A program made the position numbers and the translations under genes. The notes beneath the pieces are model-generated. The model was not told the origin of the DNA, searched no databases, and worked only from the letters and a program-made list of their open reading frames with translations. From positions 1,170,001-1,202,000 of the forward strand of contig OZ245049.1 of assembly GCA_965224465.1 (NCBI GenBank): a DNA stretch of 32,000 nt. Direction: 5' to 3'. Positions 11,108-32,000 of this stretch are shown here, in pieces. How positions within the stretch are numbered: position 1 is the stretch's first letter; every line of letters starts with the position of its first letter. This stretch comes from Flavobacteriaceae bacterium. GTDB lineage: Bacteria; Bacteroidota; Bacteroidia; Flavobacteriales; Flavobacteriaceae.

Positions 11108-11112
11108 AGTTT

Positions 11113-11694: not shown

Positions 11695-11700
11695 ATCTTC

Positions 11701-12108: not shown

Positions 12109-12124
12109 TTTGATGTTTTATTTG

Positions 12125-12367: not shown

Positions 12368-12514
12368 AATTTTTAGTTTTTATATTTTATTACAAATATT
12401 GTGCAAAAGTATCTTAAATTTATTTATAATAAAAATATTATTGATATATAATTCTTTTATTAAAGATAGTGATAATTTAAAGAATATCAAAAGATGTTGC
12501 TGTTTTTTTTAATT

Positions 12515-14168: not shown

Positions 14169-14191
14169 AAAGTTTTAGTTTTTCAAATTAA

Positions 14192-15060
14192 GCACAACAC
14201 CTCTATATCCACAATAACCAGCCAAAACTTGACGTTATTTCCGTAATAGCTACAATAGCGGTGTAATACTATTTATTTTTAAATCCGCTATATACGGTAT
14301 ACAGCGCCCTTCAAATATACAAAAAACATCCTTTTTGCACACTAACCTTTTAATTGTTTTTTAGAAACGTTTTCAACTTTAACCGCTGTTTTTTTAGAAT
14401 CTCAACAAGAATACTTGTTCTTATCCTAAACGTGCTGTTTTAATATTAGATAGTATCGTTGTTTTTACGGGGAATATTTAGGCGTATTTATTAGTTTTCA
14501 AGTGTTTACTCCTTTGTTTAGATTGTTTTTTGACGTTTTTAGCGGTGTACAGGGAAGGAATTGGAAAGATTTTGTGAATTTCTTTGAAGTTTGCGAACTG
14601 GAATAGCACCTCCCTAAATAAAGGGAAGAGACATTTTTTTGTACTAAGAAAAAGCAATAGCAAACCACCTTAAAACATGAAAAACAAAAGACTTAAAACA
14701 AGCATATAAATTAAAAAAAAGAGGTAGTCAAACCAAAAAGGACTGTCTTCAAATTATTGAAAATACACAAGGAGCTGTTTTAACTAATAAGCAAACAAAA
14801 AAAACCGTAGTCACGTAATGGGAAACACATGCCAAAATACTGCTAACCAATACTTATCCATATCTAAAAACAGTAAAAATATATCCCCACAAAAGAGCGT
14901 GAGAACAAATGACCTAAAAATAGGTGATATCTATTAAGGTCTTTGTCGATAGCCTCTTAATAAAATCACGCAATCCCCATAGTATCATCTTTTGAGCCAG
15001 CATCCTCAACAGGATGTTCATGCTGGGCGCTACACACCGCATGAACACTTAGTTATTGTG
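14192..15060 (-). repeat. Type I composite intergenic repeat, copy 1 (P module + centre + module A)
   Basis: About 870 bp, collinear with 19529-20398; roughly nine of ten positions are identical by eye. It has terminal inverted 9-mers CACAATAAC (14210-14218) and GTTATTGTG (15052-15060). Internal hairpins: ATAGCGG/CCGCTAT, AACAAG-AATA-CTTGTT, and CATCCT-CAAC-AGGATG (15001-15016). Confidence 0.9.
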
Positions 15061-15069
15061 CATAGTTTT

Positions 15070-15477
15070 TTATTCATTTAACATTATCTGTCCAATAGCA
15101 CCGACTATAAAAAATGTAATACAACTTATTACAAATAGAATGAATTGGGCGATATACATACCAAATGACAAAGTCTCACTTAATAAATTAATAACTAAAA
15201 TAATTGAGGAAGGAATCAATCCGAAAATTATTATCAATGATATTATTAATGCAACAAGTTGCCATCTAGTTTTTTTATTTGAATTTGAGATTCCAGATGA
15301 AAACTTCACTACTGATTGTCCAAATAATATTAAGGATATAATTGACCATTCAGTATTATAAAAGATTGCACTTAGGTTGTTTTCATAGCTTCTAACAATT
15401 AATAATATTATAATTGGGAGCAATGTAAATAAGAATTCAGAGGTTAAAATATATTTTATTGTTTTATCTAATTTCAT
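15070..15477 (-). CDS. Small integral membrane protein (about 4 TM helices)
   Basis: 135-aa ORF that is almost entirely hydrophobic segments. Its start lies 3 nt after the stop of the upstream 287-aa gene, so they form a tight operon. Confidence 0.6.
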   Translation of the reverse strand: MKLDKTIKYILTSEFLFTLLPIIILLIVRSYENNLSAIFYNTEWSIISLILFGQSVVKFSSGISNSNKKTRWQLVALIISLIIIFGLIPSSIILVINLLSETLSFGMYIAQFILFVISCITFFIVGAIGQIMLNE

Positions 15478-16575: not shown

Positions 16576-19038
16576 TTAGGGCTTCGTGTTTTTATTTATT
16601 GGTATAATATCTTCAATTTTGTCTTTTGAACCACCCTCTTTAAACATATCAGTTTCCTTAATCTCAATAATTTTACAATCTTTGGAGAACCAAATATATC
16701 CAAAAAAGTCTACATCAAATTCAATATTATTATCTAATTCTTCAATGTTTTTACCCCCTTTGATATACTCATCTTTAAGCTCTGTATTTGAATTTAGGTC
16801 AGATATTTTACTGTAAATATGAAGGTTTGGATTAATGTTTTCCATTTCACCCCAACGCTCTTGTGTCTTTTTTGGTAAACCGTCTATTTCTGACCAATCC
16901 CGATGTTTTACCATTGGCTTTCCAGTTTTTTCAATCAAAAACAGCGTATTATGCACCATGGAGTGCCCAGATGTGTAGCTATAGATTGGAATAGAATTAA
17001 ATCGATAATCTTCATTTCCAATTGGTTCGGTTATATTAGCATCCTTGAAATCTTTATGATACTTTATATTAATTCCAAAGCTAATTAATAAATAATCATC
17101 AGAGGAAGGATTTAATTGGCTTACGGCATCAAATATTTGTCCACTAGGCACTTCATATTTTTTGAATTTAGGTAATAAGGAAAGCTTAGTTGCGAAATGG
17201 GTATAATACTCACTTTTAATAGCTTGACCTGTAATTGAATCAGCATTTAAATGATGAACACTAGTATTATCAATAAATGCTTCTCTACTTAATAAAAAAC
17301 GAGTTCCTCTAATAACTTGCATGTATTCACTAATGGAGTCTCTATTACTTTTTTTAATATCAATCTCTGAACTAACCCTGTTTATATCATCATATGCTTT
17401 TCTAATAGAAGAAACTGTATTTGATTTTAAAGCCTCTATTTTTTCTTCTGAAAGTTCAGTAGTTTCTAATGTTTCTTGAAACCCATCTTTTATTTTAGCG
17501 GCTAATTTTTCAATATAAACTAACGGAGGTTCGACATTAATATTTTTGCAAAATTGTTTGGTAATTATATTTAAACCAAGTTTTTCTAATAAATCAGAAT
17601 TTGAAAGATGTTTTTCAATTATTTTACTAAATACTTTCAAGTTATCCTGCCATTCTTTTTTTTCACTCTGCTTTTTAGGTATTTGTGGAAGACCATGTAA
17701 TGGATGGTTACCATAATAACCAAAAGTTATATAGAGTCTAAGAAATAATAATCCAAGATATTCGCATATTACAAATTTCACATCTCTTTTATTATTCATA
17801 TTATCAAATCCCAAGTCTTTAAACCAAAAGCGTATAACTATGGAAGTGCTATGGAATCCTATTCCTAAATACGTGAAAAATAACTCAAATATACTTTGGG
17901 GATTTTGAGGTACTAATACAAAGTGAGGTGGTTGTGATTGTGTGTAAAGCCAAGCTTCTTTTAATGTTAAATATTGTTCTTTATGCATAAGGTAAGCACC
18001 AAGAGCAGTTTGTAATTGAATAAAGTACTCTCTATTTTGTGAAAACTTTTTTCGTTTTTCAATACTAACTTTTGTCTCTTTAAAGTTGTCATCATGCTCA
18101 GGATACGGAACCTTTAAATGGAAATCACAATATTGGTGTGAATTTCCCCAAAATTCTAAAACCTTTTCAGTTCTTCCCGATTCAATAACTGCTACAAGGT
18201 TTCTCCAAATAGCATTATAAGATTCTTGATGTAAAAATTGAGGTGCATGCTTCCCATAGTTCTCTGTAAAAAACACCGAGCCTATAAATGATTCAAATCT
18301 TTGGTAATAAAACTCCTCATTGGCTTTTAGGTAGGTAATTACGATATCAAATGTTCCATTATATATTTCAGGAGGGTATTGAACATATTCTTCGTTTTTT
18401 TGGTCTACAAATCTTAAGAAACCAAAAACACGATAGATATATAAATCACGAATATTATTTTCTAGTTTACGGTCTTTATTATTAATTGAATAGATAAAAA
18501 GGTCAATAATAGGGTGCCAGTAGTCAAGTATTTTTTCTTTTATTCCCCTCGAATTTTTTAGTTTTTCTCTTTCTTTAGTGTATTTGTCAAAGGTAAATCT
18601 GTTAGAATATAATTCGAACAAGTCTTGACCATTTTGATATTTTAATAATAGATTTAGATAGGGAAAAAATAGAATTAGTAGTGTTATTACAGAGATAAAA
18701 GCAACGATAAATACTCCTATTGACATTACAAAACAAAGAACAGTTAACCCTACAGATATTCTCAAATTCCAAATAAATAGTTTATGAATTTTTTCTTTCT
18801 TAAACTGATAAATAATGTGAGTGGATTTATATTGCTCATTTAACTTACTTACAGTTTGGATTATTAAAGGATATGCAATACCTAGTATTGCAGGAACAAA
18901 GGCGAGAACAATTTTAAACATTGGATTGTCAATGTATAGCCTTATAATTAAATCTTTGAGGGGTTGAAAAACGGCAACTAAAAGACCATATGATATGGAA
19001 TATATCTCTTTAATTATTTCAATAGTTTCCATATTCAT
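16576..19038 (-). CDS. Large membrane-anchored protein of unknown function
   Basis: 820-aa ORF. The N-terminal ~130 aa contain about 4 hydrophobic helices; the rest is soluble with no recognisable motif. Its stop codon is embedded in GCCCTAAC on the coding strand. Confidence 0.7.
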   Translation of the reverse strand: MNMETIEIIKEIYSISYGLLVAVFQPLKDLIIRLYIDNPMFKIVLAFVPAILGIAYPLIIQTVSKLNEQYKSTHIIYQFKKEKIHKLFIWNLRISVGLTVLCFVMSIGVFIVAFISVITLLILFFPYLNLLLKYQNGQDLFELYSNRFTFDKYTKEREKLKNSRGIKEKILDYWHPIIDLFIYSINNKDRKLENNIRDLYIYRVFGFLRFVDQKNEEYVQYPPEIYNGTFDIVITYLKANEEFYYQRFESFIGSVFFTENYGKHAPQFLHQESYNAIWRNLVAVIESGRTEKVLEFWGNSHQYCDFHLKVPYPEHDDNFKETKVSIEKRKKFSQNREYFIQLQTALGAYLMHKEQYLTLKEAWLYTQSQPPHFVLVPQNPQSIFELFFTYLGIGFHSTSIVIRFWFKDLGFDNMNNKRDVKFVICEYLGLLFLRLYITFGYYGNHPLHGLPQIPKKQSEKKEWQDNLKVFSKIIEKHLSNSDLLEKLGLNIITKQFCKNINVEPPLVYIEKLAAKIKDGFQETLETTELSEEKIEALKSNTVSSIRKAYDDINRVSSEIDIKKSNRDSISEYMQVIRGTRFLLSREAFIDNTSVHHLNADSITGQAIKSEYYTHFATKLSLLPKFKKYEVPSGQIFDAVSQLNPSSDDYLLISFGINIKYHKDFKDANITEPIGNEDYRFNSIPIYSYTSGHSMVHNTLFLIEKTGKPMVKHRDWSEIDGLPKKTQERWGEMENINPNLHIYSKISDLNSNTELKDEYIKGGKNIEELDNNIEFDVDFFGYIWFSKDCKIIEIKETDMFKEGGSKDKIEDIIPINKNTKP

Positions 19039-19070
19039 TTAACTTGTTCAATGGTCAGTGCATGAGCCCT

Positions 19071-19240
19071 AACACTAGGGCTAATAGCAGTACGACCGAA
19101 GGGTAGTATTGATTTTAGCTAATGTTGGGTGTCAGTACTTCGATTTTGTTATTCATATTGCTCAAATCTATAAAAATCTTTTTCTAGGAAGCACTATAGT
19201 ACTAGAAAAGAACCAAATAATAGGAGGATATTTCGTAACA
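19071..19240 (-). repeat. Module C (shared 5' leader), copy 1, containing an attC-like imperfect palindrome (19066-19130)
   Basis: Homologous to 21304-21470. The plus strand reads GCCCTAAC-ACTAGGGCTAATAGCAGTACGACC-GAA-GGGTAGTATTGATTTTAGCTAAT-GTTGGGT. A TAGATTTG -7-like box lies on the minus strand at 19163-19170. Confidence 0.7.
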
Positions 19241-19528
19241 GTATTTAATTCTATTTGATGTTTATTCGGAAATAAACGTAGTCTAATTAGATACAGAAAA
19301 CAACCTTTTATACTGATTATCAACTAATTACTTGATTTTGTCAAAAAAATCAACTAACTTGACTAAGTTTTTAGAACATTCCAATGTTTACAAGAGCGAT
19401 CTTGTACAGTGTAACTGTTAAAAACTTGGTTGAGACTTCAACTAACTATAATCCGTATAAAAACTCCAAATTTATCCGCAACAGCTCCTCAATTTTGTTA
19501 CGAAATCCAATTTCTTTTCTTGTATTAC

Positions 19529-20398
19529 ACCCAACACCTCTATATCCACAATAACAAGCCAAAACTTGACGTTATTTCCGTAATAGCTACAATAGCGGTG
19601 TAATACTATTTATTTTTAAATCCGCTATATACGATATACAGCGTCCTTCAAATATACAAAAAACATTCTTTTCGCACACTAACCTTTTAATTGTTTTTTA
19701 GAAAAGTTTTCAACTATAACCGCTGTTTTTTAGAATCTCAACAAGAATACTTGTTCTTATCCTAAACGTGCTGTTTTAAAATTAGTTAGTATCGTTGTTT
19801 TTACAGGGAACATCTAGGCGTATTTAGTAGTTTTCAGGTGTTTACTCCTTTGTTTAGATTGTTTTTTGACGTTTTTAACGGTGTACAGGGAAGGAATTGG
19901 AAAGATTTTGTGAATTTCTTTGAAGTTTGCGAACTGGAATAGCACCTCCCTAAATAAAGGGAAGAGACATTTTTTTGCACTAAGAGAAAGCAATAGCAAA
20001 CCACCTTAAAACATGAAAAACAAAAGGCTTAAAACAAGCATTTAAATTTAAAAAAAAGAGGTAGTCAAACCAAAAAGGACTGTCTTCAAATTATTAAAAA
20101 TACACAAAGAGCTGTTTTAACTAATAAGCAAACAAAAATAAACGTAGTCACGTAAGGGGAAACGAATGCCAAAATACTGCTGACCAATACTTATCCATAT
20201 CTAAAAACAGTAAAAACATATCCACACAAAAGAGCGTGAGAGCAAATAACCTAAAAACAAGTAGTATCTATTAAGGTCTTTGTCGATAGTCTCTTAATTA
20301 AATCTCGCAATCCCCATAGTATCATCTTTTGAGCCGGCATCCTCAACAGGATGTTTATGTTGGGTGCTACTCACCGCACGAACACTTAGTTATTGTGT
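19529..20398 (-). repeat. Type I composite intergenic repeat, copy 2
   Basis: Collinear with 14192-15060. ACCCAAC lies at 19529-19535, the hairpin CATCCT-CAAC-AGGATG at 20338-20353, GTTGGGT at 20359-20365 and GTTATTGTG at 20389-20397. It abuts the dinD stop (20403). Confidence 0.9.
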
Positions 20399-20402
20399 AG
20401 CG

Positions 20403-21239
20403 TTATTTTAGTTTTTTGGGATTTTTCAAACTTTTCTTTTCATCACTTTTTAAACGTCTGTCAATTTTACTTATGTCTTCTTCTGGAGATAAATTTTCAG
20501 GTGTAATTCCACGTGAAATTAACGTGTTTCGTACAGATTTATTATTCGTAATATGTTCCCTTGAAATTTGACTTTCAGTTCTCATATTATTCTCTTTTGC
20601 ATTGAAGATTGTAATTTCAGTAGCGAAATCTTTTGCTTTTAAAAGTATGGTAGGCATAAAATCAGCTAATGGCTTATTTTTAATTCCCCATCTATCTTTC
20701 ATTTGTTGAGTTGTCTTCCCAAATAAAGCAGTATCTCCTTTACTCCTGATTAGGGCGAAATTCTTATTGCCTCCAGTTTGTTCAAATATTATTTGAGATA
20801 ATTCTTTTTCAGTAGATTTTAATTTCTCTCTAGCTAAAACTCTTTCGTGCTCAAGCATTTTTTCCTCAATAAGTTCGGCTTTTCTAGTTTGAATAGCAAA
20901 ATAACGTTGTGCAAATGCTATTGTATTTTTTCTAGGGTCTCCGTTTTGAGTTATTAAGTAACAAGCAAATCTTGTCAACATTATATCTTCAATCTCTCTT
21001 TCACTTCCTGAGCCTAGAGTAACCATTTTGTTGACATCAACAAAATGGTCATCTATTTGCTGTTCAGAAACTTCACAAGCAGTTTTAGCTTTGTTAATTA
21101 CTAAGTTAAAGTTTCTCCATTCGTTATAGCCTAATAAATGTTGTAAGTCTCTTGCCATCCAAAATTCAACTCCATCAGATGTTTTATTGGAATGTGATTC
21201 AAAATTTTCGGTAAGGCTATGTATTATAGATGTTTTCAT
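20403..21239 (-). CDS. dinD: DNA damage-inducible protein D (DinD family)
   Basis: 278 aa. By eye, WMARDLQHLLGYNEWRNFNLVINKAKTACEVSEQQIDDHF...IMLTRFACYLITQNGDPRKNTIAFAQRYFAIQTRKAEL aligns closely with E. coli DinD (WSARQLGKLLGYSEYRHF...[36 protein letters not shown]). Confidence 0.8.
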   Translation of the reverse strand: MKTSIIHSLTENFESHSNKTSDGVEFWMARDLQHLLGYNEWRNFNLVINKAKTACEVSEQQIDDHFVDVNKMVTLGSGSEREIEDIMLTRFACYLITQNGDPRKNTIAFAQRYFAIQTRKAELIEEKMLEHERVLAREKLKSTEKELSQIIFEQTGGNKNFALIRSKGDTALFGKTTQQMKDRWGIKNKPLADFMPTILLKAKDFATEITIFNAKENNMRTESQISREHITNNKSVRNTLISRGITPENLSPEEDISKIDRRLKSDEKKSLKNPKKLK

Positions 21240-21303
21240 TCTTTAAAAATATGAATTTCAATTGTAATATCGTTGTTTTTCCTCATTTCTCCTAATGCTA
21301 CAC

Positions 21304-21470
21304 AACACTAGGGCTAATAGCAGTACGACCGAAGGGTAGTGTTGATTTTAGCCCTAGTGCTGGGTGTCAGTGCTTCAATTTTGTTATTCATATTGCTCAA
21401 ATCTATAAAAATCTTTTTCTAGGAAGCACTATAGTACTAGAAAATAACCAAATAACAGAAGGATATTTCC
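21304..21470 (-). repeat. Module C, copy 2, with the better-preserved attC-like palindrome (21300-21365)
   Basis: A 12-bp perfect inverted repeat, CACTAGGGCTAA (21306-21317) and TTAGCCCTAGTG (21348-21359), with imperfectly paired inner arms. On the coding strand it is flanked by ACCCAGC and GTTGTGT. A TAGATTTG box lies at 21398-21405 (minus strand). Confidence 0.7.
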
Positions 21471-22075
21471 ATAGACAGCTACAATAGCGGTGTAATTATA
21501 TTTAGTTTTAATTCCGCTATATACGGTATACAGCGTCCTTCAAATATACAAAAGACATCCTTTTTGCACACTACCCTTTTAATTATTTTTCAGAAAAGTT
21601 TTCAACTTTAATCGCTGTTTTTTAAAATCTCAACAAGAGTACTTGTTCTTATGATAAACATGCTGTTTAATATTAGAAAGTATCCTTGTTTCTACGGGGA
21701 GCATCTAGGCGTATTTAGTAATTTCAGGTGTTTGTTTATCTACTTACAGTCCCAAATGACCGATATAAATAGTTAGTTTACATTCTAGTGTTATTGAAAA
21801 CAGAACGATAGCCACGCAAAGAAAAATGCATACCAAAACGCTACTAACCAACAATAATCAGTATCTAAAAACAGTAAAAACATATCCCAACAAAAGAGCG
21901 TAAGAACAAATGACCTAAAACAAGTAGTATCTATTAAGGTCTTTGTCGATAGCCTCTTCATTAAATCTCGCAATCCCCATAGTATCATCTTTTGAGCCGG
22001 CATCCTCAACAGGATGTTTATGTTGGGTGCTACGCACCACACGAACACTCTTAGTTATTGTGTGTTGGCTTTATT
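21464..22075 (-). repeat. Type I repeat variant (P end truncated, centre replaced by an inverted family-B segment)
   Basis: 21470-21735 matches the type I P region from agctacaatagcgg onward. 21749-21815 is the reverse complement of the family B 3' half (ccaaatgaccgatataaatag...aacagaacgatagcc). 21850-22062 is module A (hairpin 22001-22016, GTTGGGT 22022-22028). Confidence 0.8.
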
Positions 22076-22530
22076 TGTTATTATTCTTGTTCAAACTCCA
22101 CATTTACATCAAAATATTTAGGGTTATTATTTATTTCAAATAAGTTTCCGGAAATTTCAATTCCTTTGAAATCGGGTAAAATCCTAACATTTTCATTGTT
22201 TACTTTTTTTATTTTATATGGAAATAAATATCTTGATTTAAATCTAATCATATCAGCCATAGGATTATCTTTGGTCAAAGTTGTATCTTTATTTTTCTCA
22301 GATTCTGCCAAGCCTTTAGGACTTATTTTTACAGAAAACCTTTCTCTATTGAATGTCGTATTATAAAATTTATTAAAATCAGGAATACCATTATCTTTAT
22401 CTTTTTTCATATTTTTTGTTTTGTTAGATAACAATTCTAATTCTTTAATATTCTGTCCTTTTAATTTTTCGCCAAATAATTTTAATTCTGAAACATCATC
22501 AAAAGTGTAAATGATTTTCATTTCAAATTT

Positions 22531-23520
22531 TAGGGTTACCTATTTAAATCTCACTAATATTTTGTTTTTCTGAAAGGATTTTTTACTTTTAGAAAAAGAA
22601 AGCTATGAAAATATTAAAAGAATTATCTCGTAAAGAATTTCACACTAAGTTTGGAGAAGAGAGTTTATGTTTATCTTTTTTATCATCTGTAAAATGGGAA
22701 GAAGGTTTTTCCTGTTTTAAATGTAAAAACACAAAGTTTTTAAAAGGAAAAAGAGCGTATAATAGACGTTGTACAAAATGCGGATATGATGAGTCTCCAA
22801 CTGCGAACACTCTATTTCATAAAGTTAAATTTGGTATTGTAGAAGCCTTTGAAATGACTTATGATATAGTTACCAGTAAGAAAGGAGCGAATAGTATTTG
22901 GTTAGCAGAAAGGCACGGTGTTAAACAGATGACAGCTTGGTTGTTTAGAAGAAAAGTACAAGAAGCAATGAAAAGTAGTGAGAAATATCCTTTAGAAAAA
23001 GAAGTTCATGTAGACGAGTTTGAAATAGGTACACCAAAAAAAGGAGAGCAAGGACGTAGTAAATCAGCTACTAAAATTAGAGTTGTAATTGCCATTGAAA
23101 ATAGAAATGGTAAACCAGGCAGAGCATACGCAAAGGTGATAGAAGATTATAGTTGCAAATCATTAAAACCAATATTTGAGAAACATATAAAGTTTGATGC
23201 CAATATAGTTACAGATGGCTGGTCAGGATATAAACCTTTAAAAAAGAACTTCCCAAATTTAACACAAATATTATCTAATAATGGTGAGAATTTTAAGATG
23301 CTACATTTTCAGATAAGAAACTTTAAAAATTGGTTAAGAGGCGTTCATTCGTATTGTGAGAAAGAGTATATAAATCAATACATTCAAGAGTATTTCTATC
23401 GATTTAATCGACTCAATTTTAGAGAAAACATCTTAGAAAACCTACTAAAAAGAATGTGTAAAGAAAAACCAATAACCTATAAATCAATCAAATATATTGC
23501 GACTTAAGAGGGTAACCCTA
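22531..23520 (+). mobile_element. IS1595-family insertion sequence
   Basis: Inverted ends TAGGGTTACC (22531-22540) and GGTAACCCTA (23511-23520). It is flanked by a perfect 8-bp duplication TCAAATTT (22523-22530 and 23521-23528). It carries a single transposase ORF. Confidence 0.85.
22605..23507 (+). CDS. IS1595 family transposase (N-terminal zinc ribbon + DDE domain)
   Basis: 300 aa. CFKC...CTKCG zinc-ribbon pairs, then VHVDEFEIG, VTDGWSGY and a C-terminal YIQEYFYRFNR region typical of ISXO2-like/IS1595 transposases. Confidence 0.85.
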   Translation: MKILKELSRKEFHTKFGEESLCLSFLSSVKWEEGFSCFKCKNTKFLKGKRAYNRRCTKCGYDESPTANTLFHKVKFGIVEAFEMTYDIVTSKKGANSIWLAERHGVKQMTAWLFRRKVQEAMKSSEKYPLEKEVHVDEFEIGTPKKGEQGRSKSATKIRVVIAIENRNGKPGRAYAKVIEDYSCKSLKPIFEKHIKFDANIVTDGWSGYKPLKKNFPNLTQILSNNGENFKMLHFQIRNFKNWLRGVHSYCEKEYINQYIQEYFYRFNRLNFRENILENLLKRMCKEKPITYKSIKYIAT

Positions 23521-24080
23521 TCAAATTTTTTAGATATTGAATCTGCTTTAATGTACAAACTGAAATTCTCTAATTGTTTTATTTTATCTTGTTTTTCCTT
23601 ACTTAACTTAGATATGCTGTCTTTTTTTGCATTTAAAAATTCTGAAAAAATAATTAAAGTATCTAACTGCTTATTATTTTTTCCTTCTTTAGTGTTCTTT
23701 CCCATTTTCATCATTTCAGATAGGTCAAACCCTAAACTATACCTTCCACTTCCATTAGTTTCAAATTTTGTTTCTTGAACAATTTCACAACTTGTTAGAA
23801 TGAACAATGAAATGATAAATACTATGTTAATTTTCTTCATTTATTTCGGTTTTACGCTTGTTTTTAGCTTACACACAACGATTTGTATAAGAACAATAAG
23901 GGATTAAAATGTACTCTATTTTCCGTTTATTACTTAGTGAAATTTACAATTTTTCTTTTAAAAACAGATACGAAAAATTGTAAATTTTGCGGACTTTGTA
24001 AAATGTACTAAACTTTGATTTAAGCACCAAACCCCATATTATTTTTACACGTTGTTGAACTAAACCTAAAGGTAGATTTT

Positions 24081-24835
24081 ACACCCGCTGCGCAAAGTCT
24101 CCCGACTTTGAGCCTTGTTTTCCCTAATATATTTTTATCGTAAAAAAAATTAAAATAGCTCAACAAACAGCCGATGTAGTAGCAGTCATAAAATGTATCT
24201 TATGTGCAACGAATAACTAATTAAGAGGTCATTTTACTATGAATGAAAACATGAAATATTACTCTAGGAATATAGGAATCAAAATAATAGGTATCGTTTA
24301 TCTATTTAACCGTTTAAATACTATTGTTTTGAGGTATTCAAAAATTCAACTATTATAACTTTACTAGCCGGCTATTTTGGGTACTCCAAGGGTCGGGATA
24401 TACGCTCATCTCTTCTGTATTTTTAGATTGGAGTCTCTCCGTTACACCAATCTAAAAAAAACTAAAGGGTAACCGCAGCTATCCCTAACGTAAATGAGTA
24501 TTGAGATGTTACATGTAAGAATGAAGAAATAAGAGAGGATGTAAAATACATGAATGTCCTAATTTAAATAGCCATACAAATGTTTATAAAACGCATGCCA
24601 AAAGCGCTGCTGACCAATACTTATCCGTATCTAAAAACAGTAAAAATATATCCCCACAAAAGAGCGTGAGAGCAAATAATTTAAAACAAGTGATATCTAT
24701 TAAGGTCTTTGTCAATAGCCTCTTAATAAACCTCGCAATCCCCATAGTATCATCTTTTGAGCCGGCATCCTCAACAGGATGTTTATGCTGGGCGCTACGC
24801 ACGGCACGAATACATAGTTATTGTACATAATACTT
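24081..24835 (-). repeat. Type II composite intergenic repeat, copy 1 (module E + REP-like element + module A)
   Basis: About 750 bp, nearly identical to 26267-27015. It contains hairpin CAAAGTC-TCCC-GACTTTG (24093-24110). It also has a CCAAGGGTCGGG...GCTATCCCTAACG element with an internal 12-bp-stem hairpin (TTTTTAGATTGG/CCAATCTAAAAA). Module A hairpin lies at 24766-24781. Confidence 0.9.
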
Positions 24836-24842
24836 TCTTTAT

Positions 24843-25163
24843 TCAGAATCCAAATCCGAACGGTTTTTTCCATTTCGTTATGGTTTTTAATTCTGTTGGT
24901 ATTTCCCAAATATCCAATTCCATTTTCCAATCAGTTTTATATCCTTCTGCTTTGGGGTCAAATTTTAGTTTCTCATTCTTAAATCCGTTATCCTTGAATA
25001 TATTCACAATGTGTTGTAATAGATTCCAAACGGGTTTTTCGTATTCTTCTATTGTTTGCGCTGTAAATTGGAAATAAAAGCCAGATTCCGCTCTCCAAAA
25101 TATTAGAGAAGCAGTTCCTTTGTCACATTTCGGACGGTCAATAACCCAATACAATTGGTCCAT
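24843..25163 (-). CDS. Hypothetical 106-aa protein (cassette gene; its 5' end is duplicated at 29786-29861)
   Basis: ORF MDQLYWVIDRPKCDKGTASLIFWRAESGFYFQF... with coding-like composition. Module A starts right after its stop. No domain recognised. Confidence 0.55.
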   Translation of the reverse strand: MDQLYWVIDRPKCDKGTASLIFWRAESGFYFQFTAQTIEEYEKPVWNLLQHIVNIFKDNGFKNEKLKFDPKAEGYKTDWKMELDIWEIPTELKTITKWKKPFGFGF

Positions 25164-25567
25164 CGTCTCAGTTGTAATTATCAGCTAAGAAGTATTGCTC
25201 CGCTGAATTCAGAGTTTTAAATTTCTCAAAATTAGGAATTATTTATTCGACATTCTTTTCGTCCTCATTGAATGCAAATTCGATGAAATTTCTCTTAATA
25301 AGGAATATTTTATGTGGTCGGATTATCATTTTTTTCGCATTATGTACAACGCTTAGCTAAGCGCAGTACAAGTATAAAAGTACAAACTTTCAAGCTTGCA
25401 ATTAGCCAAAGCTTTTTATTTTGTTTTATCTTCTTTTTCTAAGACCAAATCAAAAAATGTACCTCCCGTGAGACTTCGTGTTGGCGGTCTTCGTTAAATG
25501 TACTGAACTTTTGGATAATCACAAAACCCGCATTGATGTTAGGTGTATTGTACTTTCGCACTTTTAT

Positions 25568-25852
25568 TTATTCTACCGTTAATTTTATTGTTAAACCCAA
25601 TGCACTTGCTAAAAGAGCAAAATTTGACATTCGCATATCCTCTCCGTTTTCAATTCGTGAAATGTATGGTCTTTTCTTTCCAACTTTTTTTGCCAGATTT
25701 TCCTGACTCAAGTGTAATTCTTTTCGACGGTTTTTTAGGATTTCTCCGAAGTAATATGAAAATGCTTCTTCTTTAAATTTTTGACGTTCAGAAGATCCTT
25801 CCTTTCCGTAACGTTGTGCGATGAGCTCTTTTGCGTTTATTGATTTTCCCAT
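25568..25852 (-). CDS. XRE-family helix-turn-helix antitoxin (HigA-like)
   Basis: 94 aa. LKNRRKELHLSQENLAKKVGKKRPYISRIENGE is a classic Cro/C1-type HTH. Its start lies 3 nt after the stop of the upstream toxin gene. Confidence 0.8.
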   Translation of the reverse strand: MGKSINAKELIAQRYGKEGSSERQKFKEEAFSYYFGEILKNRRKELHLSQENLAKKVGKKRPYISRIENGEDMRMSNFALLASALGLTIKLTVE

Positions 25853-25854
25853 GA

Positions 25855-26193
25855 TTATTTTTCCTTTAAATACTCAATTAATAATGATTCTGCTTTTTTG
25901 ATAGCCTTTTTATAATCTTTGGTAGATTTTTTTTGGAAACCATATAAGCACACAGCTTTTGTGGATTCGGTAAAATTTAAGTGGTCAATAGCAAAAATTA
26001 TGATTCGATATTCATTTCCCGATTTGATTCGTAATTCATAGAATTGAGTGGACTTTAGTTTTTTCAAGAAGTTTGAGTTAATTATTTTAACGTCTCCAAT
26101 AATTTCTAATAGCTGAAAAAACTTCAAGGTAAATTTCTCATTTTGTTTATCCACAAATTCAAGACATTCCTCGGTGATATTTATATCTCTCAC
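25855..26193 (-). CDS. RelE/HigB superfamily toxin (Gp49-like)
   Basis: 112 aa with a GTG start. FYELRIKSGNEYRIIIFAI...AVCLYGFQKKSTKDYKKAIKKAESL matches the Gp49/HigB pattern (..ElR...g...yRi.f......v.l.gF.KK....). The toxin-first order is typical of higBA. Confidence 0.7.
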   Translation of the reverse strand: MRDINITEECLEFVDKQNEKFTLKFFQLLEIIGDVKIINSNFLKKLKSTQFYELRIKSGNEYRIIIFAIDHLNFTESTKAVCLYGFQKKSTKDYKKAIKKAESLLIEYLKEK

Positions 26194-26200
26194 CCTGCAA

Positions 26201-26220
26201 ATGTAACGAATAAGTTACAT
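26201..26220. promoter_or_regulatory. Palindromic operator-like site upstream of the toxin-antitoxin pair
   Basis: ATGTAAC-gaataa-GTTACAT, a 7-bp perfect inverted repeat 8 nt upstream of the GTG start at 26193. Confidence 0.4.
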
Positions 26221-26266
26221 AATTTAAATAATTATCATTAGAGTTTGTTTTTTTGCATGAAGTACA

Positions 26267-27015
26267 ACATCCGCTGCGCAAAGTCTCCCGACTTTGAGCC
26301 TTGTTTTTCCTAATATATTTTTATCGTAAAAAAAATTAAAATAGCTCAACAAACAGCCGCTGTAGTAGCAGTCTTAAAATGTATCTTATGTGCAACGAAT
26401 AACTAATTAAGAGGTCATTTTACTATGAATGAAAACATGAAATATTACTCTAGGAATATAGGAATCAAAATAATAGGTATCGTTTATCTATTTAACCGTT
26501 TAAATACTATTGTTTTGAGGTATTCAAAAATTCAACTATTATAACTTTACTAGCCGGCTATTTTGGGTACTCCAAGGGTCGGGATATACGCTCATCGCTT
26601 CTGTATTTTTAGATTGGAGTCTCTCCGTTACACCAATCTAAAAAAACTAAAGGGTAACCGAAGCTATCCCTAACGCAAATAAGTATTGAGATGTTACATG
26701 TAAGAATGAAGAAATAAGAGAGGATGTAAAATACATGAATGTCCTAATTTAAATAGCCATACAAATGTTTAGAAAACGCATGCCAAAAGCGCTGCTGACC
26801 AATACTTATCCGTATCTAAAAACAGTAAAAATATATCTCCACAAAAGAGCGTGAGAGCAAATGACCTAAAAACAGGTGGCACCTATTAAGGTCTTTATCA
26901 ATAGCCTCTTAATAAACCTCGCAATCCCCATAGTATCATCTTTTGAGCCGGCATCCTCAACAGGATGTTTATGTTGGGCATACTCAGCACACGAACACTC
27001 TTAGTTATTATACAT
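26267..27015 (-). repeat. Type II composite intergenic repeat, copy 2
   Basis: Collinear and near-identical to 24081-24835. Module A hairpin lies at 26952-26967 and GTTGGGC at 26972-26978. It abuts the stop of the 27020 gene. Confidence 0.9.
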
Positions 27016-27019
27016 AGTT

Positions 27020-27925
27020 TTATTTTGATATAAGTCTTAGTTCTAAACTTAATTTTGTATTAACACTTAGATTATTTTTCATTCCAGATATCAAATTATT
27101 ATTGAAATATAGAATACTACTTACAATACTTTTCTCGATTTCAGAATATTCAATTTTTTTAATACTCTCAGGTTTCTTCTTTACCCCATATCTAACTTTA
27201 GCAAATCTTATTCCCTTAGGATTAGGTTTATTATGTCTAGATTTTATTTTAAAATTGCAAATTTTTCCTGTTTTATTTATAACAAAAGTAATAAAAAAGC
27301 TTACATCATTATCTAATTTAGAGTAATCGATATAGTACATCATAGTTTTATTAAAAGAAGTGTATAAACAGTCAATTAGACAATTATCATCAAATTGAAT
27401 ACCTTCAAATTTCGGAGGTATATCTAATTCCTCAATTAAATAAACTTTCTTATAATTTTTCTCCTTTCTATTCAAAACCTCAGAAACATGAGAATTGTCA
27501 GCAGGGATTTCTTTTAAGATTATTTTGGATCCAGTATAATTTTCTACTTTTTCGATTTGCAGAATAATATTATTAAAAAAAAGGAAAACTTTATCATTTT
27601 TTGTCAAATAAAAATAGGCGTGATTACCAATTGTAATCTCGTTAAAACGATTTACACTAAACTTTTTGTTTTCTAAAAAACTAAGATCATTAGGCTTGTT
27701 ACTTGTAAAGATTTGATTTATTCCGAAATCAAAAATTAAATCAATGAAACTTTGACTCATACCTTCTATTTCATCTTTATCAAGACCCCTTCCTACAAAA
27801 CTGCTGTATGTACAGTCAATAACTTTCCATTTCCCTTCAAGAGTTATATTCCCTTCACCTTTAGCTAAACATGAGGTCGTAAAAACTATATTAAATAGTA
27901 ATAAAAATAGATATTTAAAATTCAT
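27020..27925 (-). CDS. Lipoprotein with a possible TonB-C-like C-terminal domain
   Basis: 301 aa. The signal peptide ends FTTSC (lipobox). The C-terminal segment ELDIPPKFEGI...FFITFVINKTGKICNFKI resembles the TonB C-terminal fold pattern; this resemblance is weak. Confidence 0.6.
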   Translation of the reverse strand: MNFKYLFLLLFNIVFTTSCLAKGEGNITLEGKWKVIDCTYSSFVGRGLDKDEIEGMSQSFIDLIFDFGINQIFTSNKPNDLSFLENKKFSVNRFNEITIGNHAYFYLTKNDKVFLFFNNIILQIEKVENYTGSKIILKEIPADNSHVSEVLNRKEKNYKKVYLIEELDIPPKFEGIQFDDNCLIDCLYTSFNKTMMYYIDYSKLDNDVSFFITFVINKTGKICNFKIKSRHNKPNPKGIRFAKVRYGVKKKPESIKKIEYSEIEKSIVSSILYFNNNLISGMKNNLSVNTKLSLELRLISK

Positions 27926-27951
27926 TATTCTTTGTTCTTTTTTTAATTATT

Positions 27952-28262
27952 GCTAACACCTCTATATCCACATTAACAAGCCAAAACTTAACGTTATTTC
28001 CGTAATAGCTACAATAGCGGTGTAATTATATTTATTTTTAAATCCGCTATATACGGTATACAGCGTCCTTCAAATATACAAAAACATCCTTTTCGCACAC
28101 TAACCTTTTAATTATTTTTTTATAAAAGTTTTCAACTTTAAACGCTGTTTTTTAAAATTTCAACAAGACTACTTGTTCTTATGATAAACATGCTATTTTA
28201 ATATTAGATAGTATCGTTGTTTTTACGGGGAACATTTAAGCATACTTAGTAGTTCTCAAGCG
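27952..28262 (-). repeat. P module (cassette-5' part of the type I repeat), isolated copy
   Basis: gctaacacctctatatccacattaacaagccaaaactt.acgttatttccgtaatagctacaatagcggtg...caaatatacaaaaa...ctcaacaag..tacttgttctta... matches 14192-14500 and 19529-19840. It starts 26 nt upstream of the ATG at 27925. A TATATTTG box lies on the minus strand at 28071-28078. Confidence 0.85.
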
Positions 28263-28269
28263 CTTACAT

Positions 28270-29719
28270 CCGCTGCGCAAAGTCTCCCGACTTTGAGCCT
28301 TGTTTTCCCTAATATATTTTTATCGTAAAAAAATTTAAAATAGCTCAACAAACAGCCGCTGTAGTAGCGTTTCGTTCTATTTTTTAACAACGATAGAACG
28401 TAAAATAAACTATTTATATCGGTCATTTTGGATGGTAATTGTATTAAATTTCGAAAAACACCTAAGGTACTCCCGATAGAATGGTTGCTTTCTCCATCTC
28501 TATGTAATGTAATAATTTGTTTTAAATCCATTGGATCAAGTGTAGACAACAAATCAGTTAAACTTGATCTTTTAAAGTGGCACAAGTTGAACCATAAACA
28601 CTGGCACTAACCGACCATAATCCGTGGCACAAATAGAACCGTGGTAGTCAGATGTTCTGTTTCACAAGATAATTGATGAGTACCATTACTCTTTATCAGG
28701 CAGTTTTTAAATTCGATTATTTCACCATTCTTTTCTGTTAATATTATTTCAGAGTTTAGCGAAATACTTATTTGTATTGCATAGTGTTTATGAGGTAAAT
28801 TACCCGCTGCGCAAAGTCTCCCGACTTTGAGCCTTATTTCCCCTAATATATTTTTATCGTAAAAAAAATTAAAACAGCTCAACAAACAGCCGCTGTAGTA
28901 GCCTTTCATTCTGTTTTTTAACAACGATAGAACGTAAAATAAACTATTTATATCGGTCATTTTGGATGGTAATTGTATTAAATTTCGAAAAACACCTAAG
29001 GTACTCCCGATAGAATGGTTGCTTTCTCCATCTCTATGTAATGTAATAATTTGTTTTAAATCCATTGGATCAAGTGTAGACAACAAATCAGTTAAACTTG
29101 ATCTTTTAAAGTGGCACAAGTTGAACCATAAACACTGGCACTAACCGACCATAATCCGTGGCACAAATAGAACCGTGGTAGTCAGATGTTCTGTTTCACA
29201 AGATAATTGATGAGTACCATTACTCTTTATCAGGCAGTTTTTAAATTCGATTATTTTACCATTCTTTTCTGTTAATATTATTTCAGAGTTTAGCGAAATA
29301 CTTATTTGTATTGCATAGTGTTTATGAGGTAAATTACCCGCTGCGCAAAGTCTCCCGACTTTGAGCCTTATTTCCCCTAATATATTTTTATCGTAAAAAA
29401 AATTAAAATAGCTCAACAAACAGCCGCTGTAGTAGCCTTTCGTTCTATTTTTTAACAACGATAGAACGTAAAATAAACTATTTATATCGGTCATTTTGGA
29501 TGGTAATTGTATTAAATTCCGAAAAACACCTAAGGTACTCCCGATAGAACGGTTGCTTTCTCCATCTCTATGTAATGTAATAATTTGTTTTAAATCCATT
29601 GGATCGAGTGTAGACAACAAATCAGTTAAACTTGATCTTTTAAAGTGGCACAAGTTGAACCATAAACACTGGCACTAACCGACCATAATCCGTGGCACAA
29701 ATAGAACCGTGGTAGTCAG
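28270..29719. repeat. Tandem direct repeat, 534-bp unit, about 2.7 copies
   Basis: ccgctgcg recurs at 28270, 28804 and 29338, an exact 534-bp spacing. The track ORFs 28607..29119 and 29141..29653 are offset by 534 and nearly identical. Each unit holds module E, the family B 3' half, an HTH-like ORF start, GTGGCAC-type iterated motifs ending ...GTGGTAGTCAG, and a ~180-nt gene-fragment-like piece. Confidence 0.9.
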
Positions 29720-29785
29720 TACCATCTTTTGAGCCGGTATAGTCAACACTATATTTATACTGGATGCTACGCATCGCACGAACAC
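29720..29785 (-). repeat. Module A fragment with a variant hairpin, truncated on both sides
   Basis: taccatcttttgagccggTATAGTCAACACTATAtttatactggatgctacgcatcgcacgaacac is collinear with the canonical tatcatcttttgagccggCATCCTCAACAGGATGtttatgttgggtgctac.caccgcacgaacac. Confidence 0.75.
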
Positions 29786-29861
29786 CCGCTCTCCAAAATA
29801 TTAGAGAAGCAGTTCCTTTGTCACATTTCGGACGGTCAATAATCCAATACAATTGGTCCAT
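29786..29861 (-). pseudogene. Truncated duplicate (first 25 codons) of the 106-aa cassette gene
   Basis: MDQLYWIIDRPKCDKGTASLIFWRA matches 24843..25163 and is then fused to module A sequence. The upstream 29862-30255 is homologous to 25164-25560. Confidence 0.8.
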
Positions 29862-30261
29862 CGTCTCAGTTGTAATTATCAGCTAAGAAGTATTGCTCCG
29901 CTGAATTCAGAGTTTTAAATTTTTCAAAATTAGGAATTATTTATTCGACATTCTTTTCGTCCTCATTGAATGCAAATTCGATGAAATTTTTATTAATAAG
30001 GAATGTTTTACGTTGTCGGATTATCATTTTTTTCACATTATGAACAACGCTTAGCTAAACGCAGTACAGATTTAAAAGTACAAACTTTAAAGCTTGCACT
30101 TAGCCAAATATTTTAATTTATCTTTTTTTTCTAAGACCAAATCAAAAAACTCACCTCCCATGACACTTCGTGTTGATGGTATTCGCTAAAAACACGGAAC
30201 TTTTGGCTAAGCACCAAACCCGCATTGTGTCAAGGTTTTGTTACAAGCCGCATATCTTGTT

Positions 30262-32000
30262 TTATAATTTTCTCTTTAGTTTTTCCACATATAATAAAGT
30301 CAGTCCAAATAACACGAATACAACAATCAAATTCGGTTCGCTCATCCTTTGTGCTTCTTCTCCAAGATCTAATGATTTATTTCCAGATAAAACTTGTTTT
30401 TGTTTCTTTTTTAATATTGCTTTTTGTGCTTCATTTTCTACAACTAAGTAAGAAGTTAATGGTGTCATTACTCTTGAAATAAAACTGTATTTTACTAAAT
30501 TTAACCATTCTTTATTTGCTGTAGCAGGGTGTAAAACCTGTGATGTCCACATCCCTTGGATTTTCAATGCAGTTTCCCAATCTTTTTCTTTTATTTCAAC
30601 CTCAGATATTTCAAAAACATCTTTTTTAAATATGATACTTGGTTCATTATCATTTGGTAAATAAGAGATGCTGTTATCGCTGTGTTTATATTCTAATACT
30701 GAATTCCTAAAAGAATAAGGAATGGTATCTGCCAAAGGTTGTAAAGGATTTGACACTAAAGAATGTGTTTCTAATTCCCCACTTTTCTTTAGGTTAAAAA
30801 ACAAACTACTCTCGGGGAAAGTCATTTTAAAATCTAAAAAATCTTTATCGATTATTGCTTCTTGAATAGAGTCAGTTACCACAACTATAACAGGATAAAA
30901 ATCTGTATTATTTTTAAATGAATTGTAAAGCGTTTTCTTTATGGCTCTATCCAAATAAAATCCACCTTCAAAATTTTGAGATTGGAATTTTTCCGTCCAT
31001 TTATCATCAAATTTACTTGTTGTTACATAACTATTTACAAAACTAATTTTTGCGTTTTCACTTAATGATGTATCTGTTTTAACAAACTGCTCTATTCTAT
31101 TGGTAATTTCAGTTATGCGCTTACTATCCGAAGCATCAACTAAAAAATGAAAATATGGTTTTCGTTGAACTTGTTTTAATTTTTGTTTTTGCTTAGAAGA
31201 AACGTAACATATATTATCTGTTTTAGTATCGGTAAATATTGATTCATTAGGATTGCCAAGTACAATAATATTTCCGTCAATAGTTAATTTTACAGGTTCT
31301 TTGTGCAACAACTCAATTCCTGTCTTTCGGACTTCACCACTAGCAAAGGGGAACACTCTAAATGCAACTTTATTACCCGTCAAATAATACAATATCCCTG
31401 GGTCTCTGTTCTCATTTCGAATTTGAGAAAATATCCACATTGCAGATTTTTTTTCAGCCAAAATCCCCATTTCTTTTCTATCTCCTACATATAAAAAATA
31501 ATCACTAATCCAACAACCAACTGGCAACTCAATGGTTGTGGCATATTCAGAAATGCCATTGTTCTCATTTTTATTAGTGATTTCTAATTCAATCCAACTT
31601 TTCCAAGCATTCTGACTTTTATCAAAGGTACTGTTTGTTGAAATATTTGTAATTTCTACATTACGATTTCTAATGTTTTCTGCTCTTATTTCAAAGGAAG
31701 CCTTCTTCCCAAAGAATATTTTTTCAATAGTATTAATTTTACTAGCAGATAGAGTCAGATTATCCAACACAATCCAATTAAAATAAGTTGACAAATACGG
31801 AACCTGTGTTCCAAAAATTCCGCCACGAAAACTTTTTCTATGATGTTTTACAACATTTAGAGTTTTTTGAAGTGAACTTTTATCAATATCATAATTTTTT
31901 GAAAAATCTGGCGTGTATATGTAATCAAGAGTTTCGTTTAGAACGCTTTTGTCTTTTTGATAAATACCCGTAATTGAAAAAGGAATAATCAGTATGCCAA
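30262..32000 (-). CDS. MSEP-CTERM sorting-domain protein (XrtN-system type), C-terminal ~579 aa; gene runs off window end
   Basis: The C-terminus is ...EEAQRMSEPNLIVVFVLFGLTLLYVEKLKRKL: an MSEP motif, a TM helix and a basic tail, i.e. the exosortase-type sorting signal. The track start (TTG at 31794) is not the true start. The same frame stays open upstream to 32000 (GILIIPFSITGIYQKDKSVLNETLDYIYTPDFSKNYDIDKSSLQKTLNVVKHHRKSFRGGIFGTQVPYLSTYFNW...). Confidence 0.65.
   Translation of the reverse strand, partial: GILIIPFSITGIYQKDKSVLNETLDYIYTPDFSKNYDIDKSSLQKTLNVVKHHRKSFRGGIFGTQVPYLSTYFNWIVLDNLTLSASKINTIEKIFFGKKASFEIRAENIRNRNVEITNISTNSTFDKSQNAWKSWIELEITNKNENNGISEYATTIELPVGCWISDYFLYVGDRKEMGILAEKKSAMWIFSQIRNENRDPGILYYLTGNKVAFRVFPFASGEVRKTGIELLHKEPVKLTIDGNIIVLGNPNESIFTDTKTDNICYVSSKQKQKLKQVQRKPYFHFLVDASDSKRITEITNRIEQFVKTDTSLSENAKISFVNSYVTTSKFDDKWTEKFQSQNFEGGFYLDRAIKKTLYNSFKNNTDFYPVIVVVTDSIQEAIIDKDFLDFKMTFPESSLFFNLKKSGELETHSLVSNPLQPLADTIPYSFRNSVLEYKHSDNSISYLPNDNEPSIIFKKDVFEISEVEIKEKDWETALKIQGMWTSQVLHPATANKEWLNLVKYSFISRVMTPLTSYLVVENEAQKAILKKKQKQVLSGNKSLDLGEEAQRMSEPNLIVVFVLFGLTLLYVEKLKRKL

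Follow-up and report, generated by a model that had tools for sequence, protein, structure and literature searches.

Does a short hairpin that recurs in a repeated non-coding module of a Flavobacteriaceae genome owe its recurrence to selection on a folded strand? The module, here called module A, lies in a stretch of 32,000 nucleotides (nt) of a Flavobacteriaceae bacterium (the window: contig OZ245049.1 of GenBank assembly GCA_965224465.1, positions 1,170,001 to 1,202,000 of the forward strand; positions below count from its first letter), and most of its copies carry a bulged hairpin with a 6-bp inner stem. An initial annotation, made from the letters alone, found that one diverged copy has three inner pairs changed on both sides with pairing kept, and took this covariation as evidence for selection on a folded single strand. 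That argument fails when sampling is widened: four of the six distinct copies that depart from the consensus have two or three uncompensated mismatches. Judged by its sequence, the hairpin is not a conserved structural element. On balance we favour the view that it is an incidental quasi-palindrome, whose arms would have been made complementary by events each confined to one arm, in a spacer of an integron-like, rAID-like cassette array. That the locus is such an array is very probable.

A motif search confirmed the five copies first described, including the GCCAG of the 14996 copy: the 32-nt motif GCCGGCATCCTCAACAGGATGTTTATGTTGGG occurs on the plus strand at 14996, 20333, 21996, 24761 and 26947 (with 3, 0, 0, 1 and 0 mismatches, respectively), where none is expected in shuffles. 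The diverged copy stands as described in sequence, compensated pairs and loop; its start, given as 29734, lies one base earlier. There is in addition a degenerate seventh copy.

14996-15027, plus strand: hairpin copy; inner stem intact, outer stem GCCAG/CTGGG, also TTCATG-CTGGG
20333-20364, plus strand: hairpin copy, consensus
21996-22027, plus strand: hairpin copy, consensus
24761-24792, plus strand: hairpin copy, one mismatch to the consensus (CTGGG)
26947-26978, plus strand: hairpin copy, consensus
29733-29764, plus strand: variant copy, GCCGG-TATAGT-CAAC-ACTATA-TTTATA-CTGGA
11040-11071, plus strand: degenerate seventh copy; read on the minus (gene) strand CATCCT-ATCA-ACAATA, stem broken

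The variant is a true homologue of the others. It sits in a 68-nt remnant of module A (29718-29785) with 82% identity over 68 nt to the consensus copies (E about 1e-12, within-window BLAST), which excludes the alternative, raised at the outset, of an unrelated sequence aligned by chance. Three of its six inner pairs are changed on both sides and remain complementary: all six pairs are kept, the loop is retained, and one outer G-T pair has become G-C. The five consensus hairpins, for their part, are embedded in repeats 85-95% identical over more than 240 nt, and are therefore close to one single observation rather than five independent ones. Nor is the mere existence of the hairpin remarkable, because 6-bp hairpins are expected by chance: a perfect one with a 3-8 nt loop is found in 30% of shuffles of one 260-nt module, and the array holds a mean of 1.5 per 260 nt. 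The compensated variant alone is notable.

Further copies were sought by scanning genome and metagenome collections with the pattern GTTG-N8-GGCTCAAAAGATG-N-TACT, which in hindsight was too strict. Among the matches listed, one lineage holds true homologues of module A – a Flavobacteriaceae metagenome-assembled genome (MAG; NORP167, contig NVRM01000012.1), together with a second assembly of the same sample – and 10 other loci match the pattern only. The comparison set consists of 11 distinct copies, seven from the window and four from the MAG (loci L002 and L013). On the gene strand two of the MAG copies, which follow two different cassette genes, read CATCCT-GTTG-ACTATA; the others read CACGCT-GTTG-ACTATA and CATAGT-ATTA-ACTATA. 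Uncompensated, stem-disrupting changes of the kind that had been named beforehand as counter-evidence are what most of these copies show: among the six distinct copies that differ from the consensus, compensation is complete in one, five of the six pairs remain in another, and the other four have two or three mismatches. At the first variable pair the 11 copies divide into C-G (5), U-A (1) and unpaired (5), at the second into C-G (5), A-U (2), G-U (1) and unpaired (3), and at the third into C-G (5), G-C (2) and unpaired (4). The C-G state at all three is exclusive to the five near-identical window paralogues, and RNAalifold, applied to nine module A copies, returns a covariation term of +0.7 kcal/mol, that is, none. 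A long-range helix that it draws (CAAT..AGTGTT with GATGAT..ATTG) is almost invariant and for that reason uninformative.

Folding energies (DNA parameters) give the same picture and show the stem to be weak. The 6-bp stem alone has about -4.7 kcal/mol. The full bulged structure has -3.0 kcal/mol on the plus strand and -2.1 on the minus strand in the consensus, -1.8 and -1.7 in the variant, and +4.6 to +7.4 (plus strand) in the four mismatched copies. The plus-strand advantage that the initial annotation saw in the outer stem is real, then, but small. Pairing of this outer 4-bp stem is found in all 11 copies on the plus strand if G-T is allowed; its invariance says little, because G-T pairs stay paired after either transition. 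Variation in the outer stem consists of transitions only, two of the three variable columns fall in G-T pairs, and the third is a C-to-T change at a C-G pair with pairing kept. The inner stem changes faster than its flanks, the opposite of what is expected of a constrained helix. Between the 20322 and 29722 copies there are 12 differences, six in the 12 stem positions and six in the 44 others, and over the initial 130 nt of module A, compared across both lineages, no part varies more than the stem arms. Conservation is strongest in blocks immediately 3' of the hairpin (GGCTCAAAAGATGATACTATGGGGATTGCG and ATTTGCTCTCACGCT...TTTTTACTGTTTTT); the 3' flank of the five window copies is as invariant as the hairpin itself.

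How, then, could a perfectly compensated variant arise? The arms are shared across copies in an informative way. The 3' arm ACTATA (or ACAATA) is common to the variant, the 11040 copy and all four MAG copies, and the 5' arm CATCCT to the five consensus copies, the 11040 copy and two MAG copies. Because arm states are shared across variant, 11040, consensus and MAG copies, the most parsimonious ancestor would be an imperfect CATCCT-GTTG-ACTATA (gene strand) with three of six pairs. From it, the 3' arm would have gone from ACTATA to AGGATG (three changes) in the lineage of the five window copies, and the 5' arm from CATCCT to TATAGT (three changes) in the 29733 copy; in one MAG copy the same change would have gone only as far as two bases, from CATCCT to CATAGT. 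On this view, arms would have been rewritten as complements of their partners in two or three separate events, none of which touched both arms. The changes appear multi-base and templated, as expected of replication template switching at a quasi-palindrome, and the rewritten arms possibly spread by gene conversion among paralogous modules. Template switching at quasi-palindromes is known to create and ‘maintain’, or perfect, hairpins in single events (PMC8794818, PMC7202029). The likeness lies in clustered multi-base changes of one arm that give the exact complement of the other and resemble compensation; the difference is that an ancestor with just three of six pairs would offer little homology to prime the switch. 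We infer the mechanism from the one-arm pattern alone. Compensatory evolution would in this way be mimicked, so that no pair need have been kept through a double change.

Several points weigh against this account. The three arm-perfecting events could equally reflect selection for pairing, the two being inseparable with 11 copies from two lineages. The ancestral state comes from parsimony on paralogues that are open to gene conversion and without a true outgroup. Over the 11 copies 93.6% of cells pair (plus strand, G-T allowed), a value that only 4 of 500 column shuffles reach, although by the tool's own warning a result of this size is attainable from relatedness alone. The 16-nt hairpin is identical in the five window copies though their 5' flanks differ at about 11 of 32 positions, and its loop, GTTG, equals the cassette-junction core, by coincidence or not. 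As for the array, the window holds no recombinase gene and we infer the movement of cassettes, and the list of the ends of 22 cassettes, used below, was compiled by hand with poor ones included. With these reservations the hairpin fails as a stand-alone structured element, and it carries a caution: one doubly substituted paralogue can resemble covariation, and such apparent covariation may be explained by a one-arm templated change or by a mix of alleles.

Strand-asymmetric folding had led the initial annotation to compare the hairpin with attC, the recombination site of integrons. The analogy is apt for the locus, an integron-like array in which module A stands at the cassette 3' junction, and not for the hairpin, which has no R-box cores. 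Under the criterion used here an attC site is an imperfect palindrome of about 55-140 nt bounded by RYYYAAC and GTTRRRY. The hairpin is 32 nt long and unconserved, its outer stem CCGG/TTGG contains no AAC or GTT core, and one has to go 33 nt upstream, to the cassette junction, to meet an R''-like core (..CAAT|AAC). It might nonetheless be a weakly constrained stem, like the variable terminal structure or L box of attC, within a folded bottom-strand substrate of which a tyrosine recombinase reads the shape; broken copies would then be decaying or inactive sites. We regard this as unlikely, though a number of observations accord with it. Module A begins exactly at an R''-like junction; the plus strand of the window, which is the bottom strand of the array, pairs slightly better; the outer stem is paired in every copy; the arms were made complementary repeatedly, around a loop equal to the junction core GTTG; and the distance from CAATAAC to GTTGAGG, about 55 nt, is the minimal size of an attC and spans a second imperfect hairpin (TGTTCGTG...CATAAACA around GGTG/CACC) just upstream of the first.

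Folding speaks otherwise. Over its first 115 nt, module A has no folding advantage over shuffles (z -1.1 to +0.8, five copies, both strands), so that the region lacks the better-than-chance fold and bottom-strand preference of attC, whereas two attC-like sites used as positive controls, at 21290-21372 of the window and in a Maribacter spacer (locus L018), reach z -3.4 to -5.1. Pairing is not kept across diverged sites either: the four mismatched copies lack the stem and yet stand beside apparently intact cassette genes. The second hairpin is 85% paired and shows no covariation. The putative GTTG-AGGATG junction has no R''-type partner (CATCCT-CAAC), and taking the 55 nt from CAATAAC to the GTTG loop as a short attC yields no fold signal. 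Mosaic modules have their breakpoints at GTTG|x junctions and some 255 nt into the module, and no evidence was found for any at the hairpin. No L'-type partner for the start of module A was found near the far end of the spacer. Long-range pairing by which the start of module A would reach the promoter-bearing end of the spacer was not convincing in RNAduplex, since the program always finds something in A+T-rich DNA, and a long-range match GGGCGCT/AGCGCCC present in one module is not matched in others. An IS200/IS605-type subterminal hairpin was likewise rejected: no TnpA (HUH) or TnpB gene is present among the window open reading frames (ORFs), and the copies occur only at cassette junctions.

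The hairpin lies on the transcribed strand, 33-48 nt into module A and about 45-60 nt beyond the stop codon of the preceding cassette gene. This place raises the further idea that it acts in RNA, in the 3' untranslated region of the cassette transcript, where it might protect against 3' exonucleases, be a site of processing or terminate transcription. The stem has enough symmetry to form in gene-strand RNA, and a stem-loop soon after the stop codon is what Rho-independent terminators and 3' stabilisers have. It differs from them in its short stem (6 bp), in being followed by CCGGCUCAAAAG / CCGGCTCAAAAG and not by a U-run, in not being called by a terminator scan, which bears out no part of the terminator role once suggested for it, and in not being conserved in the related lineage; the scan does report a weak candidate about 115 nt beyond the hairpin, at 20239-20222. 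With no covariation in the alignment and no Rfam family (Rfam 15 has no match at 19000-30300 or elsewhere in the array, even at E up to 1), an RNA role seems to us very improbable. The sole Rfam match of the window is Flavo-1, at 8647-8719, and no tRNA or Rfam element that could account for the repeats was found in the window. Flavo-1 (RF01705, 56 bits) is on the minus strand and adjoins two plus-strand ORFs (8969-9322 and 9366-10868), which we take, by eye, to form an IS66-family element (8969-10868).

Protein coding was the remaining way to read the variant, which lies inside a 73-amino-acid (aa) ORF (29640-29861, minus strand): the substitutions would be codon-level changes in a conserved peptide. 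The translated segments are loosely alike (VRAMRSIQYKYSVDYTGSKDGT vs VRAVSSTQHKHPVEDAGSKDDT). No other module A copy, however, has a frame free of stop codons, the copies differ by frame-shifting indels, and when the six translations of the module were joined into one query, no protein among 5.8 billion sequences was retrieved; because of these stops and this empty search, the coding reading is refuted in practice and we give it almost no credence. The 73-aa ORF is itself a chimera, its first 25 codons being the N-terminus of a DUF4274 gene (24843-25163), and the homology of the DUF4274 regions (25088-25535 with 29786-30227) ends exactly where homology to module A begins. Genetic code 4 was also considered and dropped: table 11 already yields long non-overlapping ORFs, and table 4 opens no long ORF through module A.

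What, then, is the setting in which the hairpin recurs? The array extends over 10.9-30.2 kb on the minus strand, where all genes from about 11.1 to 31.8 kb lie, and has a G+C content of 0.25-0.35 against 0.39-0.41 in the neighbouring HrpB gene; the window ends (32000) inside a VIT-like gene. Its cassettes encode DUF4274, a Gp49/HTH toxin-antitoxin pair, PIN_8, Bro-N and SecB-like proteins and several of no known family. Six of them show the form of the ends.

24820-25350, minus strand: DUF4274 cassette; 5' GTTGTACATAAT (25339-25350), 3' ATTATGTACAAT (24820-24831), an 11-nt inverted repeat
11099-12523, minus strand: two-gene cassette (genes 11113-11694 and 11701-12108); 5' GTTGGTGGTAAT, 3' CTACCACCAAT
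20392-21306, minus strand: Bro-N cassette; 5' GTTGTGTAGC, 3' GCTACACAAT
25547-26268, minus strand: HigB/HigA-like toxin-antitoxin cassette; 5' GTTGTACTTC, 3' GAAAGTACAAT
12977-14198, minus strand: PIN_8 cassette; 5' GGTGTTGTGCTTA, 3' TAAGCACAAAACACC
19124-19535, minus strand: cassette without an ORF; 5' GTTGGGTGTA, 3' GACACCCAAC

A cassette begins with GTTG-x and ends with x'-CAA(C/T). Over 22 cassettes, with the six variable bases beside the cores compared, the two ends of one cassette show complementarity at 4.9 of 6 positions, vs 2.0 of 6 for ends of different cassettes, and none of 100,000 permutations reaches the observed total. (A generic scan for GTT...AAC inverted repeats proved too noisy in A+T-rich DNA, with 44 against 31 in shuffles, and the junction-based test was used instead.) The terminal repeats that each cassette thus owns would correspond to the R' and R'' cores of integrons, which they resemble; by analogy, they may pair in single-stranded DNA or bind an XerD/IntI-like tyrosine recombinase that moves the cassettes. 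Ends of the same form are found in the Maribacter array (GTTGGCAGTA/TACTGCCAAC, GTTGTAAACA/TGTTTACAAC, GTTGTACCTA/TAGGTACAAC, GTTGTGCGTA/TACGCACAAC and others). The PIN_8 gene (12989-14164, minus strand) has a 392-codon open frame whose first in-frame start is codon 229; at a run of six T, its ATG (about 14150) falls out of this frame by one base, which may mark a frameshifted gene, a sequencing error or slippage.

A 209-aa membrane-protein gene, found in the MAG, allows the unit to be delimited by comparison between genomes. Homologues 76-85% identical occur in Maribacter, Tenacibaculum and several further Flavobacteriaceae assemblies, and the cassette is present in six arrays (L013, L015, L017, L018, L019 and L020) among unrelated spacers and neighbours. 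The shared DNA runs from (GT)TGTAGTGCATTTGAGAA-ATG to TAA-AAAC-GCACTACAA, and the spacers beyond are wholly different. The ends form a 10-nt inverted repeat (GTTGTAGTGC / GCACTACAAC) whose flanks are kept in three different arrays; inverted-repeat ends were confirmed in L013, L015, L017 and L018. That this cassette recurs among unrelated spacers is direct evidence for movement of the repeat-bounded unit, and not of the spacer, between genomes. Module A is absent from the Tenacibaculum, L015, L017, L019 and L020 loci that carry this same gene.

Between the cassettes lie spacers of several types, of which module A and a partner segment form one. Module A begins directly after the 3' cassette core (...x'-CAAT|AACTAAGTGTTCG...) and is the first ~255 nt of a spacer of 750-900 nt that comes in two versions.

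20160-20391, minus strand: representative module A copy, about 230-260 nt, non-coding with stops in all six frames; begins after the 3' junction ...GCTACACAAT|AACTAAGTGTTCG
about 14823-15054, 21823-22056, 24589-24819, 26774-27006 and 10910-11098: other module A copies, the last adjoining the IS66-like element and containing the 11040 hairpin
14187-15071 and 19524-20408: type 1 spacer
24081-24829 and 26267-27016: type 2 spacer
19537-19659, minus strand: conserved 3' part of the type 1 inter-cassette module; ends ...GATATAGAGGT right before the GTTG of the next cassette (GTTG|x)
19645-19659, minus strand: Bacteroidetes-type -7 promoter motif TTGTATATTTGAAGG (also given as TATATTTG), motif only
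14308-14322, 21537-21551 and 28067-28081: further copies of the promoter motif
25164-25546, minus strand: type 3 inter-cassette module; begins after ...GTACAAT-ACACC, ends GCTTAGCTAAGC-GTTG, resembles that of the Maribacter array and is duplicated at 29862-30261
21290-21372, minus strand: short attC-like site, an imperfect palindrome of about 66 nt ending ...CCCTAGT-GTTG
19056-19136: diverged second copy of the short attC-like site

Judged by this motif, the type 1 spacer would supply a promoter-like element for the next cassette. The same long spacer is found in the MAG, with 83% identity in the module A part and 72% in the promoter part, and since it is kept there, the module is maintained as a whole. 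Repeated intergenic motifs, by which rAID-1 is recognised, are thus present: module A seven times, the promoter-bearing part four to five times, and the type 2, type 3 and type 4 spacers twice each. The type 3 spacer and the start of the DUF4274 cassette are duplicated together (25088-25535 and 29786-30227, 91% identity), and a deletion truncates the upstream DUF4274 duplicate beyond codon 25 and extends over the initial 7 nt of module A; illegitimate deletions therefore also shape the array.

Similarity to integrons is considerable. The arrays are co-oriented with a site after each cassette; the cores, RYACAAC and GTTGTRY, come near the integron R'' (RYYYAAC) and R' (GTTRRRY); and each cassette has a 5' end complementary to the core at its 3' end. 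The short spacers, that at 21290-21372 as well as those of the Maribacter and Bizionia loci, have the form of an imperfect palindrome with an R box, an asymmetric spacer and an L box: those of L018 and of the Bizionia locus (L022) have the anatomy R''-spacer-L''...L'-GAGACC-R', with a better bottom-strand fold (z -3.4 and -5.1 for L018), and that at 21290-21372 folds with -14.5 kcal/mol on the minus and -16.9 on the plus strand (z -3.5 and -4.3). The differences are that complementarity of cassette ends extends over 9-15 nt, vs 6-7 in integrons, and that spacers of the module A type have 750-900 nt, a promoter-like motif and no overall attC fold. Such spacers (0.75-0.9 kb) could be an expanded equivalent of attC with its own promoter, in a Flavobacteriaceae system driven by an XerD/IntI-like recombinase, with the first 60-90 nt or so, hairpin and GTTG loop included, forming part of a single-stranded substrate read by the recombinase; this we hold to be improbable, but if it were true the repeated perfecting of arms would be the footprint of frequent hairpin extrusion. 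Surveys with IntegronFinder report almost no integrons in Bacteroidetes (bioRxiv 10.1101/2022.02.28.482270). The array is notable in that its cassette ends are precisely defined and co-vary strongly, and in that it belongs to a phylum regarded as almost free of integrons. Marine Flavobacteriaceae evidently carry integron-like arrays with ends co-varying over 9-15 nt around GTTG/CAAC cores, and such precise junctions give a testable prediction of where cassettes are cut and joined.

An integron integrase was taken to be a TIGR02249 match with the IntI-specific insertion, adjoining the array and divergently transcribed; none of this kind was found here, nor any tyrosine recombinase among the window ORFs scanned against Pfam. 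In the Bizionia locus an XerD/IntI-like tyrosine recombinase gene (9279-10408) lies directly upstream of such cassettes, on the same strand. It differs from the integron arrangement in being co-oriented with the array and in scoring 71.8 and 115.7 bits vs a cut-off of 265, below the NCBIfam cut-offs for both integron integrase and XerD; its best match is an XerA/XerD-like model. A frameshift of one base, in the conserved GLR..E region, breaks the gene into two ORFs.

The array agrees with what has been described as rAID-1 in Bacteroidales, in which a XerD-family recombinase accompanies co-oriented short genes of low G+C with intergenic repeats ‘reminiscent of integrons’ (2019, bioRxiv 10.1101/471110; PMC12247911). 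How rAID arrays are built is still unknown according to the authors of the gut Bacteroidales study (PMC12247911), and recombinases closely homologous to that of rAID-1 are stated to occur in Bacteroidales only (bioRxiv 10.1101/471110; PMC12247911). Shared with rAID-1 are an upstream XerD-family recombinase on the same strand, here in Bizionia, and, in related arrays, polymorphic-toxin immunity families (Imm51, Imm33-like, PoNi, DUF6882 and DUF1963). In contrast to rAID-1, the host belongs to Flavobacteriaceae rather than Bacteroidales, the window ORFs include no recombinase, and the cassettes of the window encode mostly toxin-antitoxin, PIN, Bro-N and unfamiliar proteins, not recognised type VI secretion system immunity genes. 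No similar DNA was found in phage or plasmid collections.

Some minor observations concern the recombinase and the cassette core. All 120 listed database matches to the C-terminal part of the Bizionia recombinase are only 59-144 aa long, some on contigs of more than 250 kb, and array L019 contains (6800-7264) an 82-aa integrase remnant preceded by a cluster of TGTACA-containing repeats resembling the commonest core, GTACAAC. The split and short recombinases and the repeat cluster could reflect frequent decay, programmed frameshifting or a cluster of binding sites. In two genera DNA beginning AACTGAG... stands directly after the 3' core (...CAACAAAG|AACTGAG...): at about 4166-5380 of L018, where it carries an IS110-family transposase gene, and at 12365-12488 of L022, where the contig ends before any gene is visible. 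IS1111-attC elements insert right at the attC core of integrons, and the IS110-family elements at the cassette core may be likened to them.

Other repeats and mobile elements adjoin or interrupt the array. Between the 68-nt module A remnant and a promoter-bearing segment, a tandem repeat (28270-29719) comprises 2.7 copies of a 534-nt unit at 98% identity, each unit with a 170-aa ORF lacking a Pfam match, a piece of the type 2 spacer end and a dispersed repeat of about 75 nt. The latter belongs to a family of 65-180 nt repeats (74-96% identity; 2009-2188, 3675-3743, 3860-4005, 5631-5791, 28372-28448 plus two more unit copies, and inverted at 21744-21811) that is not confined to the array but also found beyond it, between housekeeping genes, and may be an element resembling repetitive extragenic palindromes or miniature inverted-repeat transposable elements. 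Because its end abuts the degenerate module A copy at 10910, the IS66-like insertion probably truncated the distal end of the array. An IS1595-family transposase gene (22605-23507, plus strand) lies in opposite orientation inside one cassette region.

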